Of a stretch of DNA of 64,000 nt, positions 2,833 through 56,300 are shown piece by piece. The notes beneath the pieces are model-generated. The model did not search any database. It worked only from the letters and a program-made list of their open reading frames with translations, and was not told the origin of the DNA. Both the position numbers and the translations under genes were made by a program. The first letter of the stretch is position 1; each line of letters starts with the position of its first letter. Origin of the DNA: Escherichia coli (GTDB lineage Bacteria; Pseudomonadota; Gammaproteobacteria; Enterobacterales; Enterobacteriaceae); NCBI RefSeq assembly GCF_024223415.1, contig NZ_CP100500.1; one strand, 5' to 3'.

Positions 2833-2908
2833 GTCGGATGCGGCGCGAACGCCTTATCCGAACTACGCGAAGTTAATCCATAGAATTCGTAGGCCGGATA
2901 AGACGTGG
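2833..2908. repeat. BIME: one complete REP/PU plus the left half of a second PU that is interrupted by the IS
   Basis: gtcggatgcggcgcgaacgccttatccgaactacg (complete PU) then cgtaggccggataagacg (half PU) directly abutting the IS. Confidence 0.75.
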
Positions 2909-3435
2909 CAATGAACTGCACCCCAAATGTTGGACATAATCTGACATCTGAAGGTGCAGTTTATGAAACATTCATTTGAAGTAAAACTTGCCGCTGTAAA
3001 TCATTACCTGGCCGGTCATGCAGGCATCATTTCTACGGCAAAACTCTTTCAACTTTCTCACACCAGCCTCTCACACTGGATTAATCTTTTTCTTCTTCAC
3101 GGTCCTCAGGCACTGGATTGCAGACACAAGCGTAGCTATTCTCCTGAAGATAAACTTTGCGTGGTTCTTTATGCTCTCGGGCATTCTGAGTCTCTACCCC
3201 GGGTAGCTGCCCGGTTTAACATTCCCAGCCACAACATGGTTAAAAACTGGATAAAAGGCTACCGCAAATCTGGTAATGAGGCCTTTATCAGGCGCAGGAA
3301 GGAGAAAAGCATGACCCGTTCTGATGATACCCATGAAAACGAGGCAAACATGACGCCGGAAGAGATGAAGAATGAGCTGCGTTATCTTCGCGCAGAAAAT
3401 GCATATCTGAAAGCCATGCAGGAGCATCTCCTGGA

Positions 3436-3442
3436 AAAAAAG
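3436..3442 (+). other. programmed -1 ribosomal frameshift heptamer A AAA AAG
   Basis: A7G run in the orfA zero frame where the orfB reading frame opens; canonical IS3-family frameshift motif. Confidence 0.7.
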
Positions 3443-4343
<901 letters not shown>

Positions 4344-4391
4344 GCAAGCGTCGCATCCGGCAATGTGCTTCAACTAGCGATGGCGCACATC

Positions 4392-24758: not shown

Positions 24759-25472
24759 ATGCAAAAGCAAGCTGAGTTGTATCGTGGTAAAGCGAAAACC
24801 GTATACAGCACGGAAAACCCGGACCTGTTGGTGCTCGAATTCCGCAATGATACGTCAGCAGGGGATGGCGCGCGCATTGAGCAGTTTGATCGCAAAGGTA
24901 TGGTGAACAACAAGTTCAACTACTTCATTATGAGCAAACTGGCTGAAGCGGGTATCCCGACTCAAATGGAGCGTCTGCTCTCCGATACCGAATGTCTGGT
25001 GAAAAAGCTGGATATGGTACCGGTTGAGTGTGTCGTGCGTAACCGTGCTGCTGGCTCTCTGGTGAAACGTCTTGGAATCGAAGAAGGTATTGAGCTGAAC
25101 CCGCCGCTGTTCGATCTGTTCCTGAAAAACGACGCCATGCACGATCCGATGGTCAACGAATCTTACTGCGAAACCTTTGGCTGGGTAAGCAAAGAGAACC
25201 TGGCACGCATGAAAGAGCTGACCTACAAAGCGAACGACGTGCTGAAAAAACTGTTCGATGATGCTGGTCTGATTCTGGTCGACTTCAAGCTGGAGTTTGG
25301 TCTGTACAAAGGCGAAGTGGTACTGGGTGATGAGTTCTCCCCGGACGGTAGCCGCCTGTGGGACAAAGAAACGCTGGAGAAAATGGACAAAGACCGTTTC
25401 CGCCAGAGCCTCGGTGGCCTGATCGAGGCCTATGAAGCCGTCGCCCGCCGCCTGGGTGTACAGCTGGACTGA
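24759..25472 (+). CDS. purC: SAICAR synthetase
   Basis: ORF track 24750..25472; likely start [10 protein letters not shown] giving 237 aa. Confidence 0.9.
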
Positions 25473-25493
25473 TTTTTCTGGTTGCTTGTTTAT

Positions 25494-25519
25494 TTAGCCG
25501 GAGGGTACTCCGGCTAAAT
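25494..25519 (+). terminator. perfect 11-bp-stem hairpin after purC (terminator-like, no T-run)
   Basis: tttagccggag-ggta-ctccggctaaa. Confidence 0.45.
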
Positions 25520-25560
25520 GTCTTCGATACCCCCGCTACAATACTTCGCATTATCTCCCT

Positions 25561-25608
25561 TTGACAGGAAAGTAATAACAGGCCAATATGTATATACATG
25601 ACGTATAT
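25561..25608 (+). promoter_or_regulatory. putative vapBC promoter and operator
   Basis: TTGACA at 25561..25566, 17-bp spacer, CAATAT at 25584..25589; perfect 12-bp palindrome ATGTATATACAT at 25588..25599 overlapping the -10 and putative start site; GTATAT repeated again at 25602..25608. Confidence 0.45.
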
Positions 25609-25626
25609 CCCAAAAAAGGGGGGGCT

Positions 25627-25854
25627 ATGGAAACTACTGTATTTTTAAGTAATCGCAGTCAGGCCGTCAGATTACCGAAAGCGGTCGCTCTGCCAGAGGA
25701 TGTTAAGAAAGTAGAAATTATTGCGATTGGTCGTACAAGAATCATCACTCCCGCCGGTGAGTCCTGGGACAGTTGGTTTGATGGCGAAAATGTGAGTGCG
25801 GATTTTATGGATATCCGTGATCAACCCGCAATGCAGGAAAGGGAATCATTCTGA
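25627..25854 (+). CDS. vapB: VapB-type antitoxin (AbrB/SpoVT fold)
   Basis: 75-aa product METTVFLSNRSQAVRLPKAVALPEDVKK... closely resembles VapB/MvpA antitoxins as I recall them; preceded by a G-rich RBS; stop overlaps the toxin start (TGATG). Confidence 0.8.
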   Translation: METTVFLSNRSQAVRLPKAVALPEDVKKVEIIAIGRTRIITPAGESWDSWFDGENVSADFMDIRDQPAMQERESF

Positions 25855-26252
25855 TGCTGAAATTCATGCTGGATACCAATATCTGTATTTTCACTATTAA
25901 GAATAAACCAGTACATGTCAGAGAGCGGTTTAACCTGAATTCTGGCCGGATGTGTATAAGTTCTGTAACATTGATGGAGCTTATCTATGGGGCAGAAAAA
26001 AGTCAGATGCCAGAACGCAATTTGGCGGTGATTGAAGGTTTCGTATCTCGTTTGGAAGTGCTTGATTATGATAGTGCTGCTGCGACGCATACTGGGCAAA
26101 TCAGGGCCGAGCTTGCCCGGCAGGGAAGGCCTGTTGGACCTTTTGACCAGATGATAGCGGGACATGCTCGCAGTCGCGGTTTGATTGTGGTTACCAACAA
26201 TACCCGAGAGTTTGAGCGAGTGGCGGGAATCAGACTAGAAGATTGGAGCTAA
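25854..26252 (+). CDS. vapC: VapC-type PIN-domain toxin (tRNA endonuclease family)
   Basis: 132-aa product MLKFMLDTNICIFTIK... with PIN-domain acidic residues; 1-nt overlap with vapB. Confidence 0.8.
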   Translation: MLKFMLDTNICIFTIKNKPVHVRERFNLNSGRMCISSVTLMELIYGAEKSQMPERNLAVIEGFVSRLEVLDYDSAAATHTGQIRAELARQGRPVGPFDQMIAGHARSRGLIVVTNNTREFERVAGIRLEDWS

Positions 26253-26398
26253 CATTCTCTTTTACTTCTAACATTCGTAAATTATATAACGTGGCATGAA
26301 GCCTTAATTCCTCCGCCATTTCATCCCGTTTTCCTGTGGTAATCTTCCTCTGAACCACCTACGATCATTTCTATAATGAATATATTGTTGAGGTATCT

Positions 26399-27262
26399 AT
26401 GCGTTGGCAAGGGCGACGTGAAAGTGACAATGTTGAAGACAGGCGCAATAGCTCCGGCGGTCCGTCAATGGGCGGTCCCGGTTTCCGTCTGCCGAGCGGT
26501 AAAGGCGGGCTGATTTTACTGATAGTCGTGCTGGTTGCAGGCTACTATGGCGTTGATTTAACCGGGTTGATGACCGGGCAGCCGGTTTCTCAACAGCAAT
26601 CAACGCGGTCAATTAGCCCAAATGAAGACGAAGCCGCAAAATTCACCTCGGTGATTCTGGCAACCACGGAAGACACCTGGGGACAACAGTTCGAGAAGAT
26701 GGGTAAGACCTATCAGCAACCGAAGCTGGTCATGTACCGTGGAATGACGCGTACCGGATGCGGGGCGGGCCAGTCCATAATGGGGCCGTTCTATTGCCCG
26801 GCGGATGGCACGGTTTATATCGATCTCTCCTTCTATGATGACATGAAAGACAAACTTGGCGCGGATGGCGATTTTGCCCAAGGGTACGTTATCGCCCATG
26901 AAGTCGGTCATCATGTGCAGAAACTGTTAGGCATCGAGCCGAAAGTTCGTCAACTGCAACAAAACGCGACGCAGGCGGAAGTGAACCGCTTATCTGTGCG
27001 TATGGAACTCCAGGCCGACTGTTTTGCCGGTGTCTGGGGGCATAGTATGCAGCAGCAAGGCGTTCTGGAAACCGGCGATCTGGAAGAGGCGCTGAACGCT
27101 GCGCAGGCCATCGGCGATGACCGTTTACAACAGCAAAGTCAGGGGCGAGTAGTACCAGACAGTTTCACTCATGGCACTTCTCAGCAACGCTACAGCTGGT
27201 TTAAACGTGGTTTCGACAGCGGCGATCCGGCACAATGCAATACTTTTGGTAAAAGCATTTAA
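26399..27262 (+). CDS. ypfJ: putative zinc metalloprotease
   Basis: 287-aa ORF with N-terminal TM segment and HEVGHH motif. Confidence 0.8.
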
Positions 27263-27276
27263 CTTCCGGGGCAGGG

Positions 27277-29292
27277 ATGGCTGAACTGACTGCGCTTCAC
27301 ACATTAACAGCGCAAATGAAACGTGAAGGGATCCGCCGCTTGCTGGTGTTGAGCGGGGAAGAGGGTTGGTGTTTTGATCATGCGCTTAAGTTACGTGATG
27401 CCTTATCTGGCGACTGGCTGTGGATTTCGCCGCAGCCAGATGCTGAAAACCACTGTTCTCCCTCGGCACTACAAACTTTACTTGGGCGCGAGTTCCGGCA
27501 TGCGGTATTCGACGCCCGCCACGGCTTTGATGCCGCTGCCTTTGCCGCACTTAGCGGAACGTTGAAAGCGGGAAGCTGGCTGGTTTTGTTACTCCCTGTA
27601 TGGGAAGAGTGGGAAAACCAACCTGATGCCGACTCGCTGCGCTGGAGTGATTGCCCTGACCCTATTGCGACGCCGCATTTTGTCCAGCATTTCAAACGCG
27701 TACTTACGGCGGATAACGACGCTATCCTCTGGCGGCAAAACCAGCCGTTCTCGTTGGCGCATTTTACTCCCCGTACTGACTGGCACCCCGCGACCGGCGC
27801 ACCACAACCAGAACAACAGCAACTCTTACAGCAGCTACTGACCATGCCGTCGGGCGTGGCAGCGGTAACTGCTGCGCGTGGGCGCGGTAAATCGGCGCTG
27901 GCAGGGCAACTCATTTCTCGTATTGCGGGTAGTGCGATTGTCACTGCGCCCGCAAAAGCGGCAACGGATGTACTGGCACAATTTGCGGGCGAGAAGTTTC
28001 GCTTTATTGCGCCGGATGCCTTGTTAGCCAGCGATGAGCAAGCCGACTGGCTGGTGGTCGATGAAGCCGCAGCCATACCTGCGCCGTTGTTGCATCAACT
28101 GGTATCGCGTTTTCCTCGAACGTTGTTAACCACTACGGTGCAGGGCTACGAAGGCACCGGACGTGGTTTTTTGCTGAAATTTTGCGCTCGCTTTCCGCAT
28201 TTACACCGTTTTGAACTGCAACAGCCGATCCGCTGGGCACAGGGATGCCCGCTGGAAAAAATGGTTAGTAATGCACTGGTTTTTGACGATGAAAACTTCA
28301 CCCATACACCACAAGGCAATATTGTCATTTCCGCATTTGAACAGACGTTATGGCGAATCGAGCCAGAAACGCCGTTAAAGGTTTATCAGTTATTGTCTGG
28401 TGCGCACTACCGGACTTCGCCGCTGGATTTACGCCGCATGATGGATGCACCAGGGCAACATTTTTTACAGGCGGCTGGCGAAAACGAGATTGCCGGAGCG
28501 CTGTGGCTGGTGGATGAGGGTGGATTATCTCAAGAACTCAGTCAGGCGGTATGGGCAGGTTTTCGTCGCCCGCGGGGTAATCTGGTGGCCCAGTCGCTGG
28601 CGGCGCACGGCAGCAATCCACTGGCGGCGACATTGCGTGGACGGCGGGTCAGCCGGATAGCAGTTCATCCGGCTCGTCAGCGGGAAGGCACAGGGCGGCA
28701 ACTTATTGCTGGTGCTTTGCAATATACGCAAGACCTCGACTATCTTTCGGTAAGTTTTGGTTACACCGGGGAGTTATGGCGTTTCTGGCAACGCTGCGGT
28801 TTTGTGCTGGTGCGAATGGGTAATCATCGTGAAGCCAGCAGCGGTTGCTATACGGCGATGGCGCTGTTACCGATGAGTGATGCGGGTAAACAGCTGGCTG
28901 AACGTGAGCATTACCGTTTACGTCGCGATGCGCAAGCTCTCGCGCAGTGGAATGGCGAAACACTCCCTGTTGATCCACTAAACAATGCCGTCCTTTCTGA
29001 CGACGACTGGCTTGAACTGGCCGGTTTTGCTTTCGCTCATCGTCCGCTATTAACGTCGTTAGGTTGCTTATTGCGTCTGCTACAAACCAGTGAACTGGCA
29101 TTACCGGCGCTGCGTGGGCGTTTACAGAAAAACGTCAGCGACGCGCAGTTATGTACCACACTTAAACTTTCAGGCCGCAAGATGTTACTGGTCCGTCAGC
29201 GGGAAGAGGCCGCGCATGCGCTGTTCGCACTTAATGATGTTCGCACTGAGCGTCTGCGCGATCGCATAACGCAATGGCAATTTTTTCACTGA
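27277..29292 (+). CDS. tmcA: tRNA(Met) cytidine acetyltransferase
   Basis: 671-aa ORF with helicase-like ATP-binding motif (GRGKSAL) and GNAT-type C-terminal region. Confidence 0.85.
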   Translation: MAELTALHTLTAQMKREGIRRLLVLSGEEGWCFDHALKLRDALSGDWLWISPQPDAENHCSPSALQTLLGREFRHAVFDARHGFDAAAFAALSGTLKAGSWLVLLLPVWEEWENQPDADSLRWSDCPDPIATPHFVQHFKRVLTADNDAILWRQNQPFSLAHFTPRTDWHPATGAPQPEQQQLLQQLLTMPSGVAAVTAARGRGKSALAGQLISRIAGSAIVTAPAKAATDVLAQFAGEKFRFIAPDALLASDEQADWLVVDEAAAIPAPLLHQLVSRFPRTLLTTTVQGYEGTGRGFLLKFCARFPHLHRFELQQPIRWAQGCPLEKMVSNALVFDDENFTHTPQGNIVISAFEQTLWRIEPETPLKVYQLLSGAHYRTSPLDLRRMMDAPGQHFLQAAGENEIAGALWLVDEGGLSQELSQAVWAGFRRPRGNLVAQSLAAHGSNPLAATLRGRRVSRIAVHPARQREGTGRQLIAGALQYTQDLDYLSVSFGYTGELWRFWQRCGFVLVRMGNHREASSGCYTAMALLPMSDAGKQLAEREHYRLRRDAQALAQWNGETLPVDPLNNAVLSDDDWLELAGFAFAHRPLLTSLGCLLRLLQTSELALPALRGRLQKNVSDAQLCTTLKLSGRKMLLVRQREEAAHALFALNDVRTERLRDRITQWQFFH

Positions 29293-54781: not shown

Positions 54782-54800
54782 ATGCCGGATGCGACGCATG

Positions 54801-56233
<1,433 letters not shown>

Positions 56234-56236
56234 ATG

Positions 56237-56300
56237 TCGCGTCTTATCCGGCCTACGGGATTGCACATGTAGAGCGGATAAAGCGTTCACGCCGCATCCG
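56237..56300. repeat. BIME: right half of the interrupted PU plus a second complete REP/PU
   Basis: tcgcgtcttatccggcctacg then gcggataaagcgttcacgccgcatccgc. Confidence 0.7.

Follow-up and report, generated by a model that had tools for sequence, protein, structure and literature searches.

VapBC (MvpAT) toxin–antitoxin systems of enteric bacteria are known from both plasmids and chromosomes. The systems compared here are encoded by the Shigella virulence plasmid (pINV/pMYSH6000; PDB 3TND, 6SD6, 9H6A-D), by F-like conjugative plasmids (pMAR7, pSLT-like, F'), where vapBC sits between traD and traI, inside the tra region, and by the chromosome of Salmonella enterica LT2 (STM3033/STM3034; PDB 6IFC/6IFM). 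The LT2 operon is autoregulated through two functional operators, vapO1 overlapping the -10 element and vapO2 overlapping the -35 element, with conditional cooperativity: VapC strengthens the binding of VapB to the operator, and excess VapC releases VapB, which is degraded by Lon (PMC3378870). The same study established that one operator suffices for regulation, that D7A VapC is non-toxic, and that VapC dimerizes through an interface that includes L43, I44, Y72, and A76 and is required for both the octamer and conditional cooperativity (PMC3378870). For S. sonnei VapBC, two operators, OS1 and OS2, have been described together with an OS1 oligonucleotide (PMC11796401).

The vapBC pair between purC and ypfJ

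We analyzed a 64-kb window of E. coli DNA, the term being used for the whole stretch at its full length. Within it, purC ends at 25472 and ypfJ starts at 26399, and the 926-bp interval between these core genes contains an antitoxin and a toxin gene. The gene-level features are as follows.

24759..25472, + strand: purC, left flanking core gene, outside the islet (TIGR00081 purC, 290 bits; annotated as purC in matching genomes)
25612..25624, + strand: A6G7 run with the vapB ribosome-binding site (read from the sequence; length of the A-run differs among alleles)
25627..25854, + strand: vapB, antitoxin of 75 aa, with a DNA-binding domain of the AbrB/MazE type at the N-terminus and a toxin-binding tail at the C-terminus (NF040493, PF04014, alignment to 6SD6 chain A; WP_000450524.1)
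25854..26252, + strand: vapC, PIN-domain toxin of 132 aa, predicted to be a tRNA(fMet)-specific endonuclease (NF010285, PF01850, alignment to 3TND/6SD6; WP_000911329.1)
26399..27262, + strand: ypfJ, right flanking core gene, given for context (NF050010, 380 bits)

The antitoxin gene lies directly upstream of the toxin gene in the same orientation and overlaps it by one base, the vapB stop TGA and the vapC start ATG sharing an A (TGATG); this is the layout of a type II toxin–antitoxin operon. Both genes, their lengths, and their overlap are found exactly where the original prediction, made from the sequence alone, had put them. It had also doubted the first in-frame ATG of the antitoxin frame, and rightly so: a start at 25588 would give an 88-aa ORF, while the second in-frame ATG (25627) gives the 75-aa vapB annotated by PGAP and seen in the homologues, and is preceded by a G-rich ribosome-binding site. 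The start can thus be settled at the 75-aa ATG, a point of some use since certain gene callers choose the 88-aa one. Three antisense ORFs, of 114 aa (25821-26165), 104 aa (25285-25599), and 42 aa (26230-26358), match no family and were rejected as spurious.

The family assignment of both products is firm, with match scores well beyond chance. VapC reaches 291.3 bits against the curated NCBIfam model NF010285 (PRK13725; cut-off 143), covering residues 1-132 of 132, and contains the Pfam PIN domain (PF01850, E = 1.9e-21). VapB scores 113.8 bits against NF040493 (cut-off 60), with a MazE/AbrB domain at residues 6-48 (PF04014, E = 5.5e-5). The predicted pairing of an AbrB-type antitoxin with a PIN toxin is therefore borne out by both collections, and so is the predicted closeness to plasmid VapBC/MvpAT: compared with the proteins of pINV, pMAR7, and pSLT-like plasmids, amino acid identity is 92% for VapC and 84–85% for VapB.

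The Shigella proteins are equally long (75 and 132 aa), their genes overlap by one base as they do here, and the solved VapC structures are matched at 92% identity (6SD6, E = 7e-80; 3TND, E = 1.1e-79). In this alignment the PIN acidic residues D7, E42, D98, and E119 (Shigella numbering) are identical; loss of these catalytic residues, named beforehand as one observation that would speak against the prediction, is thus not seen. The dimer-interface residues L43, I44, Y72, and A76 are all kept. VapB aligns over its full length with 6SD6 chain A (E = 3e-40; 84% identity to pINV VapB), with residues 1-23 as well as Q12, L22, F52, F61, and F75 identical; the three C-terminal phenylalanines (F52, F61, and F75) mark the Lon-cleaved region of S. 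sonnei VapB. The differences from the pINV proteins amount to 11 substitutions in VapC and 11–12 in VapB, the latter mostly in the C-terminal toxin-binding half (S46T, S49E, E54H/N, I63N, D65E, A68G), and might affect how active or specific the proteins are, or how stable the antitoxin is. Among the VapC substitutions is R32, the S. sonnei state, which a review links to a difference in plasmid stability.

For the F-like plasmids the identities are 92–93% (VapC) and 85% (VapB). The LT2 system, which is chromosomal as well and also has an AbrB-type antitoxin (sequence match at E = 1e-72), is somewhat more distant from the islet than is the Shigella plasmid protein (245 vs. 268 bits), and presumably occupies a chromosomal site different from purC-ypfJ. 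At the nucleotide level the relationships are far looser. The islet is only 73–75% identical to pINV, with saturated synonymous sites (pS 0.88) and a lower GC3, and the F-like plasmid genes form a separate lineage, with no records at 80%–95% identity. Unlike the plasmid-borne pINV pair, the purC-ypfJ pair is chromosomal and has no plasmid-maintenance role, and it is not part of a tra region.

Promoter and operators

The only promoter layout that the locus has in common with its plasmid homologues lies upstream of vapB. It comprises the following elements.

25551..25571, + strand: relic of operator OS2/vapO2, embedding the -35 hexamer (aligned with plasmid vapBC promoters; 84 promoters of the family scanned)
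25561..25566, + strand: -35 hexamer TTGACA (read from the sequence; invariant against four plasmid promoters, kept in most family promoters)
25584..25589, + strand: -10 hexamer CAATAT (read from the sequence; three of six consensus matches, 17-nt spacer; positional homologue of the plasmid -10)
25588..25599, no strand assigned: 12-bp perfect palindrome ATGTATATACAT, containing the left half-site of OS1 (kept in six chromosomal alleles)
25590..25610, no strand assigned: predicted operator OS1/vapO1, consisting of GTATATAC (25590-25597), an ATGAC spacer, and GTATATCC (25603-25610); predicted VapB/VapBC site

Both hexamers had been anticipated in these positions. In the promoter alignment CAATAT takes the place of the plasmid vapBC -10 elements CACAAT and CATAAT; as it matches TATAAT at only three of six positions, the promoter was not reported by a scan for consensus promoters. 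The leader RNA (25575-25630) folds no better than shuffled sequence (z = -0.6).

The palindrome overlapping the -10 element had been proposed as the operator. Its place is right and ATGTATATACAT is indeed present, but it covers only the left half-site of a longer element. The predicted OS1 spans 21 bp, GTATATAC-N5-GTATATCC, directly downstream of the -10 hexamer and abutting it, and corresponds in every alignment column to OS1 in the 33-bp oligonucleotide SH176, which S. sonnei VapBC bound in EMSA (PMC11796401 supplement), a correspondence at the level of sequence homology. Of the 84 family promoters scanned, 42 show this 21-bp arrangement. Perfect self-complementarity of the 12-bp palindrome is incidental, since in most of the family its place is taken by GGATATAC, which is not palindromic; nor is it significant in itself, as 18 perfect 12-bp palindromes were observed in the 64-kb window vs. 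15.6 expected by chance. It is the paired half-sites, not the palindrome, that exceed chance: GTATATMC occurs in the window only at these two half-sites, which are spaced 13 bp, and their position is homologous to that of a characterized operator. Across chromosomal alleles the half-sites are invariant and the spacer varies (ATGAC or ATAAC). The -35 hexamer and the OS1 geometry, with half-sites 13 bp apart, are the same in pINV, where the left half-site reads AGATATAC instead of GTATATAC.

A decayed second operator over the -35 hexamer had gone unnoticed in the original prediction. It reads TTATCTCC-C-TTTGAC-AGGAAA vs. the family consensus GTATATCC-C-NTTGAC-ATATCC, so that six of eight positions are kept in the left half-site and the right half-site is lost (AGGAAA for ATATCC). 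In this respect the islet differs from pINV, from the F-like plasmids, which share its promoter layout but have both operators intact, and from LT2, with two functional operators described as against one predicted here. The loss does not disqualify the locus from the autoregulation typical of enteric VapBC, because OS1-only promoters are common in the family (20 of 84, beside 22 with both operators and 30 with OS2 only) and one operator is sufficient (PMC3378870). With OS2 degenerate, repression may nevertheless differ from that of the characterized systems.

Borders, distribution, and selection

Alignments with the empty sites of B-strain, O157-like, ST131, and other genomes delimit the allele-specific DNA and the sequence elements around it.

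25481..26306, + strand: 826 bp of DNA specific to the purC-ypfJ allele that carries vapBC (alignments with empty sites)
25492..25519, + strand: perfect hairpin with a 12-bp stem, ATTTAGCCGGAG-GGTA-CTCCGGCTAAAT, 20 nt after the purC stop (repeat search)
26249-26257 and 26268-26276, + strand: direct repeat CTAACATTC, spanning the vapC stop and the right end of the islet (repeat search)
26307..26398, + strand: ypfJ upstream region common to both alleles, with TATAAT just upstream of the ypfJ start (alignments)

The 826-bp segment stands in place of a 67-bp stretch in K-12, B, O157:H7, and ST131 strains. On the left it starts sharply, immediately behind TTTTTCTG; on the right the border is blurred, as 26271-26306 retains weak, gapped similarity to a hypervariable part of the empty allele. 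Both copies of CTAACATTC match the empty allele in part, and this direct repeat could be a scar left at the junction or have arisen by chance. A mobile-element origin was considered and rejected: the islet lacks integrase and transposase genes, and the 9-bp direct repeat at the right end is the only terminal repeat.

The hairpin downstream of purC folds at -24.9 kcal/mol (z = -4.7) and is not followed by a U-tract; its stem is conserved, its loop varies in L007, and the empty allele has a different hairpin in the same place. It probably ends or stabilizes the purC transcript, the terminator role being putative given the missing U-tract. No terminator was reported downstream of vapC by the scan for consensus promoters and terminators, and Rfam returned no hits at gathering scores in the whole window, nor at E <= 1 in 25300-26600.

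The islet is present in about 1614 of 5426 complete E. coli genomes (~30%), always at purC-ypfJ, and the dapA-bamC-purC-vapBC-ypfJ-tmcA context is the same in 10 of the 10 places shown for the exact protein. In K-12 MG1655 there is no gene at the site, the purC-ypfJ spacer being 167 bp. The suspicion that K-12 has nothing here and that the islet is strain-variable is thus upheld by the comparison of purC-ypfJ intervals, which shows that the pair is not universal in E. coli and places the borders at 25481 and 26306. One scan of genome contigs with a VapC query, to which empty sites are invisible, returned no locus in E. albertii or E. fergusonii. The pair is already known to RefSeq: every matching genome among those listed carries the vapB and vapC annotation. 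No literature on the chromosomal purC-ypfJ vapBC was found, the papers, as far as their text was accessible, covering only plasmid vapBC or the Salmonella locus.

Chromosomal alleles are under purifying selection. In none of the alleles examined is either reading frame disrupted, the VapB protein is identical across alleles that differ at 2–9% of synonymous sites, and dN/dS ranges from 0 to 0.1, two other Escherichia lineages included. GC3 is low (0.41 for vapB and 0.455 for vapC vs. 0.52–0.63 for host genes). The islet is less diverse than its flanks and uncoupled from them, and its patchy distribution combined with this lower diversity suggests spread by recombination.

Role of the module

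Several findings support one reading: the genes are identified, their catalytic and dimer-interface residues are intact, the operator has characterized homologues, selection is purifying, and the pair is present in some genomes and absent from others at one fixed site. The region is very probably a complete chromosomal type II toxin–antitoxin operon of the enteric VapBC (MvpAT) family, carried by an accessory segment between purC and ypfJ, with a mechanism assigned by close homology. Both genes would be transcribed from the single promoter (TTGACA, 17 nt, CAATAT), and the TGATG overlap would couple their translation. VapC is predicted to be a Mg2+-dependent PIN endonuclease specific for initiator tRNA(fMet), which it would cut in the anticodon loop, halting translation initiation and arresting growth; the prediction rests on the 92% identity to the Shigella enzyme. 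VapB would neutralize it by wrapping around the toxin with its C-terminal tail, and the AbrB-type N-terminal domain, within a VapB-VapC hetero-octamer, would bind both half-sites of OS1 (25590-25610). As OS1 abuts the -10 hexamer, such binding is expected to repress the operon, and excess VapC or degradation of VapB by Lon would relieve the repression (conditional cooperativity). With only OS1 kept and OS2 over the -35 hexamer decayed, regulation should run through a single operator.

We also weighed other roles. The module could serve in anti-addiction or cross-talk, with chromosomal VapB neutralizing the VapC of plasmids (F-like, pINV) and blunting post-segregational killing, and with the complexes possibly binding each other's operators. 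The high identity of antitoxins (84–85%) and toxins (92%), the identical DNA-binding end of VapB (residues 1-23), and the operator half-site cores ATATAC and ATATCC shared by chromosomal and plasmid modules all fit such a role. Both modules are common, too: F-type plasmid vapBC occurs in 760–767 of the 5426 complete genomes vs. about 1614 for the islet, and the two occur together in at least 324 genomes, where both sets of proteins do meet in the same cell. A parallel is offered by ccdO157, a strain-variable chromosomal homologue of the F-plasmid addiction module ccdAB that resembles the islet in lying between two E. coli core genes, although its toxin is a gyrase poison from a family unrelated to VapC; chromosomal ccd reportedly provides a precedent for cross-neutralization and anti-addiction (Saavedra De Bast 2008). 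On the other hand, the two modules are found together no less often than expected (at least 324 genomes vs. ~226 under independence, a raw count without correction for phylogeny), so that plasmid vapBC is not visibly excluded or disfavored in hosts with the islet, and most VapB substitutions fall in the half that binds the toxin. We regard this role as doubtful; it concerns what the module is for and is compatible with a working toxin–antitoxin system. Equally doubtful is its more specific form, in which an OS1-only regulatory variant cross-talks with F-like and pINV VapBC, neutralizing plasmid VapC or co-repressing the plasmid operon, and in which the islet may spread by homologous recombination of its flanks.

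A role in phage defense through abortive infection, where a phage that shuts off host transcription or degrades VapB would set VapC free to stop translation ahead of the end of the phage cycle, agrees with the accessory, patchy distribution and the signs of recombinational spread. It seems improbable, however, given that neither protein matches a PADLOC-DB model (E <= 0.01), that the islet consists of two genes between housekeeping genes with no defense genes adjoining, and that no support was found in the literature. Least credible of all is a decaying or domesticated remnant that no longer works as a toxin–antitoxin system (e.g., with an inactive toxin) and persists by drift: decayed OS2, weak -10, and low GC3 speak for such a remnant, but frames intact throughout the alleles examined, the full set of PIN acidic residues with the dimer-interface tyrosine, the VapB protein held constant against synonymous change, and the frequency of OS1-only promoters in the family make it highly improbable.

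The purC-ypfJ vapBC is an ordinary, already annotated, routine accessory locus, and the analysis is of modest practical value in defining its predicted operator and the islet boundaries. Roughly a third of E. coli have a second, chromosomal VapBC, 84–92% identical to the plasmid VapBC that has been studied for plasmid maintenance and antibiotic tolerance, and this resident copy is relevant to work on vapBC stability and tolerance in non-K-12 hosts. If the cross-talk were real, the islet would change the retention of vapBC-stabilized virulence and resistance plasmids in ~30% of E. coli.

The vapBC gene pair

The interval between purC and ypfJ is organized as follows (window coordinates):

25472, end of purC, the left neighbour of the islet
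25561-25566, -35 element TTGACA upstream of vapB
25584-25589, -10 element CAATAT, separated from the -35 element by 17 nt
25588-25599, perfect 12-bp palindrome ATGTATATACAT
25588-25854, vapB ORF; translation from the second in-frame ATG (25627) yields a protein of 75 aa with the N-terminus METTVFLSNRSQAVRLPK
25854-26252, vapC ORF, 132 aa, sharing one base with the vapB ORF (TGATG)
26399, start of ypfJ, closing a purC-ypfJ interval of 926 bp

Thus, the gene order purC-vapB-vapC-ypfJ, the TGATG overlap, both promoter elements and the palindrome of the original prediction are all present in the sequence. PGAP calls the 75-aa VapB starting at 25627; the start differs among public gene calls (loci L097, L100, L102), some records having the 88-aa ORF from 25588.

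The proposed similarity to VapBC/MvpAT proteins is well founded. VapC is a full-length match to the NCBIfam family NF010285 "tRNA(fMet)-specific endonuclease VapC" (291 bits; cut-off 143), and VapB matches NF040493 (113.8 bits; cut-off 60), while Pfam assigns a PIN domain to VapC and an AbrB-clan MazE_antitoxin domain to VapB. Among solved structures, VapC is closest to the toxin of the Shigella plasmid pINV (6SD6, E = 7e-80; 3TND, E = 1.1e-79) and also matches the Salmonella toxin (6IFC, E = 1e-72); VapB matches 6SD6 with E = 3e-40. The proteins of pINV, pMAR7 and pSLT-like plasmids are 92% identical to VapC and 84–85% identical to VapB. Alignment showed that the PIN active-site residues D7, E42, D98, and E119 are all kept in VapC, as are the dimer-interface residues L43, I44, Y72, and A76, required for repression (Winther and Gerdes, PMC3378870). 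VapB shares residues 1–23 with Shigella VapB and retains Q12, L22, and the three phenylalanines of the Lon-cleaved C-terminal region. The interval encodes nothing further: antisense ORFs had no family match, and searches with Rfam and PADLOC gave no match.

Promoter and operator

The vapBC promoter was not called in a consensus promoter scan, because CAATAT fits the -10 consensus at only three of six positions. The palindrome had been proposed as the operator; its place is right, but it contains only the left half-site of an operator predicted at 25590-25610. Perfect 12-bp palindromes occur in the window at chance level (18 vs. 15.6 expected), and this one owes its perfect self-complementarity to a T at a position that is G in most relatives. 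In an alignment with four plasmid vapBC promoters, TTGACA is invariant and is followed by two conserved blocks. The predicted operator, OS1, has the form GTATATAC-ATGAC-GTATATCC in the window and GGATATAC-N5-ACATATCC in the plasmids. The aligned pINV stretch is the reverse complement of SH176, the 33-bp oligonucleotide that served as "OS1" when S. sonnei VapBC was assayed by gel shift and SPR (PMC11796401 supplement).

Two recurring 21-bp elements were found among 84 family promoters from Enterobacterales, Pseudomonas, Vreelandella, Sphingobium, Rhizobium, Dadabacteria and others: OS1 (GGATATAC-N5-NNATATCC), immediately 3' of the -10 element, and OS2 (GTATATCC-C-NTTGAC-ATATCC), with the -35 element embedded. 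By pattern, 22 promoters have both elements, 30 OS2 only, 20 OS1 only, and 12 neither. The window promoter is of the OS1-only class, as are those of the related Escherichia loci L006 and L007. Its OS2 is decayed: the left half-site TTATCTCC keeps six of eight positions, and the right one is lost (AGGAAA). Both OS1 half-sites are invariant among chromosomal alleles, with the spacer ATGAC or ATAAC.

An A6G7 run (25612-25624), which includes the ribosome-binding site, separates OS1 from the start codon of vapB; its length varies among E. coli alleles (A5, A6, or A8), and L006 and L007 have AAAGAAG. The 8-bp palindrome GGATATCC within vapB (25809-25816; codons M-D-I-R) unites both half-site forms with no partner 13 bp away, and is kept in L006 and L007; this operator-like sequence is probably a chance match.

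Islet boundaries, distribution and evolution

Comparison of the purC-ypfJ interval, proposed in order to define the islet, placed it at 25481-26306. Alignment of the occupied allele (with vapBC) and the empty one shows a replacement rather than a clean insertion. The 826 bp specific to the occupied allele start right behind TTTTTCTG (25473-25480), and 67 bp of allele-specific DNA are found at the corresponding place of the empty allele. A strong hairpin lies just 3' of purC in both alleles, different in each. Collinearity of the two alleles resumes at 26307, but the right edge is not sharp: 26271-26306 can be weakly aligned to a stretch that is hypervariable in the empty allele, and a direct repeat of 9 bp, CTAACATTC, flanks the vapC end. 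The hypervariable stretch of empty alleles (L001, L089, L090, L091), about 25 bp immediately left of ATTCCTCC, occurs as CTCTCGGAATATATGCATT, CATTCTCGTAAGATGTGCATT, and CTCTCATAAGATGAGTATT, the remaining spacer being nearly invariant.

The expectation of a strain-variable islet was confirmed: with flanks matched in 5425 of 5426 complete E. coli genomes, the full arrangement is present in 1614, where PGAP names the genes vapB and vapC. K-12 MG1655 has a 167-bp spacer without a gene, in agreement with the original prediction, and the site is also empty in a B strain, an O157:H7-like strain, ST131 and others. Public assemblies very often contain a VapC of exactly this sequence, and all ten contexts listed for it, one of them an O104:H4 genome, read dapA-bamC-purC-vapB-vapC-ypfJ-tmcA. 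The same arrangement occurs in two more species-level Escherichia representatives (L006 and L007, titled E. coli at NCBI), while the next relatives, from other genera, have at most 86% protein identity.

Elsewhere in the window, two IS1397-like (IS3 family) copies lie in opposite orientation (2889-4364, plus strand; 54783-56256, minus strand). Both share 99.7% identity with IS1397 of strain GPEC1446, where the element is annotated between ypfG and tkt. The window lacks a copy there (41431), although it otherwise matches GPEC1446 with 99.97% identity over 40 kb.

Synonymous divergence of vapBC is 0.02–0.09 within E. coli and 0.09–0.13 to L006 and L007, lower than that of the neighbouring ypfJ, bamC, and tmcA (up to 0.17–0.42). 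The window flanks (purC 3' end and ypfJ 5' end) differ from the empty O157-like strain by pS of 0.03 and 0, but from those of other islet-bearing strains by 0.08–0.22 (loci L086-L091; region 25100-26700). Islet and flanks are uncoupled, a pattern that fits movement or loss of the islet through homologous recombination rather than clonal inheritance. One might suppose that the islet is a decaying remnant; this is unlikely, given its intact residues and dN/dS of 0–0.1 for chromosomal vapB and vapC. VapB is identical between chromosomal alleles with 2–9% synonymous-site differences, and purifying selection on the two genes is strong within the chromosomal lineage. A role as a phage-defence module finds no support from either PADLOC or the neighbourhood.

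Synonymous sites are saturated between chromosomal and plasmid vapBC (25627-26249 vs. L002-L005; pS 0.83–0.89), nucleotide identity is 73–75%, and no vapBC record among the E. coli records falls in the 80–95% identity range, all of which points to two old, distinct lineages. This pS exceeds the 0.75 expected at random saturation, with the proteins still 84–93% identical. GC3 is 0.41 for chromosomal vapB and 0.455 for vapC, compared with 0.55–0.71 in plasmid copies and 0.52–0.63 in host genes.

Mechanism and relation to plasmid vapBC

The islet very probably works by the mechanism described for enteric VapBC (PMC3378870, PMC11796401). Going by its close homologues, a VapB-VapC hetero-octamer would bind OS1 and autorepress vapBC transcription until Lon removes VapB or VapC is in excess; free VapC would then cut initiator tRNA(fMet), stopping translation initiation. 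As a single operator is enough for conditional cooperativity and vapO1 (OS1) is the higher-affinity site (Winther and Gerdes, PMC3378870), the OS1-only promoter should still be regulated. Read-through into ypfJ-tmcA is possible, because a scan found no terminator-like site between vapC and ypfJ (26253-26398). The tRNA(Met) C34 acetyltransferase gene tmcA (27277-29292) lies two genes 3' of the tRNA(fMet) nuclease gene, probably by coincidence.

The islet is real, was correctly interpreted and is ordinary, being an already known and annotated member of a thoroughly characterized family; the corrections (the operator, the islet limits with the replacement allele, and the weak -10 element) are all local. 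A literature search found no paper on the chromosomal allele. The most interesting of the open possibilities is interplay with plasmid vapBC, by cross-neutralization or cross-repression. The antitoxins of the two systems are 84–85% identical, with identical DNA-binding ends. F-type vapBC is present in 760–767 complete E. coli genomes, and at most 2050 have any vapBC match; hence, at least 324 (1614 + 760 − 2050) carry both kinds, compared with about 226 under independence, in raw genome counts that ignore kinship. Therefore, the chromosomal and plasmid systems often meet in one cell, where they may interact.
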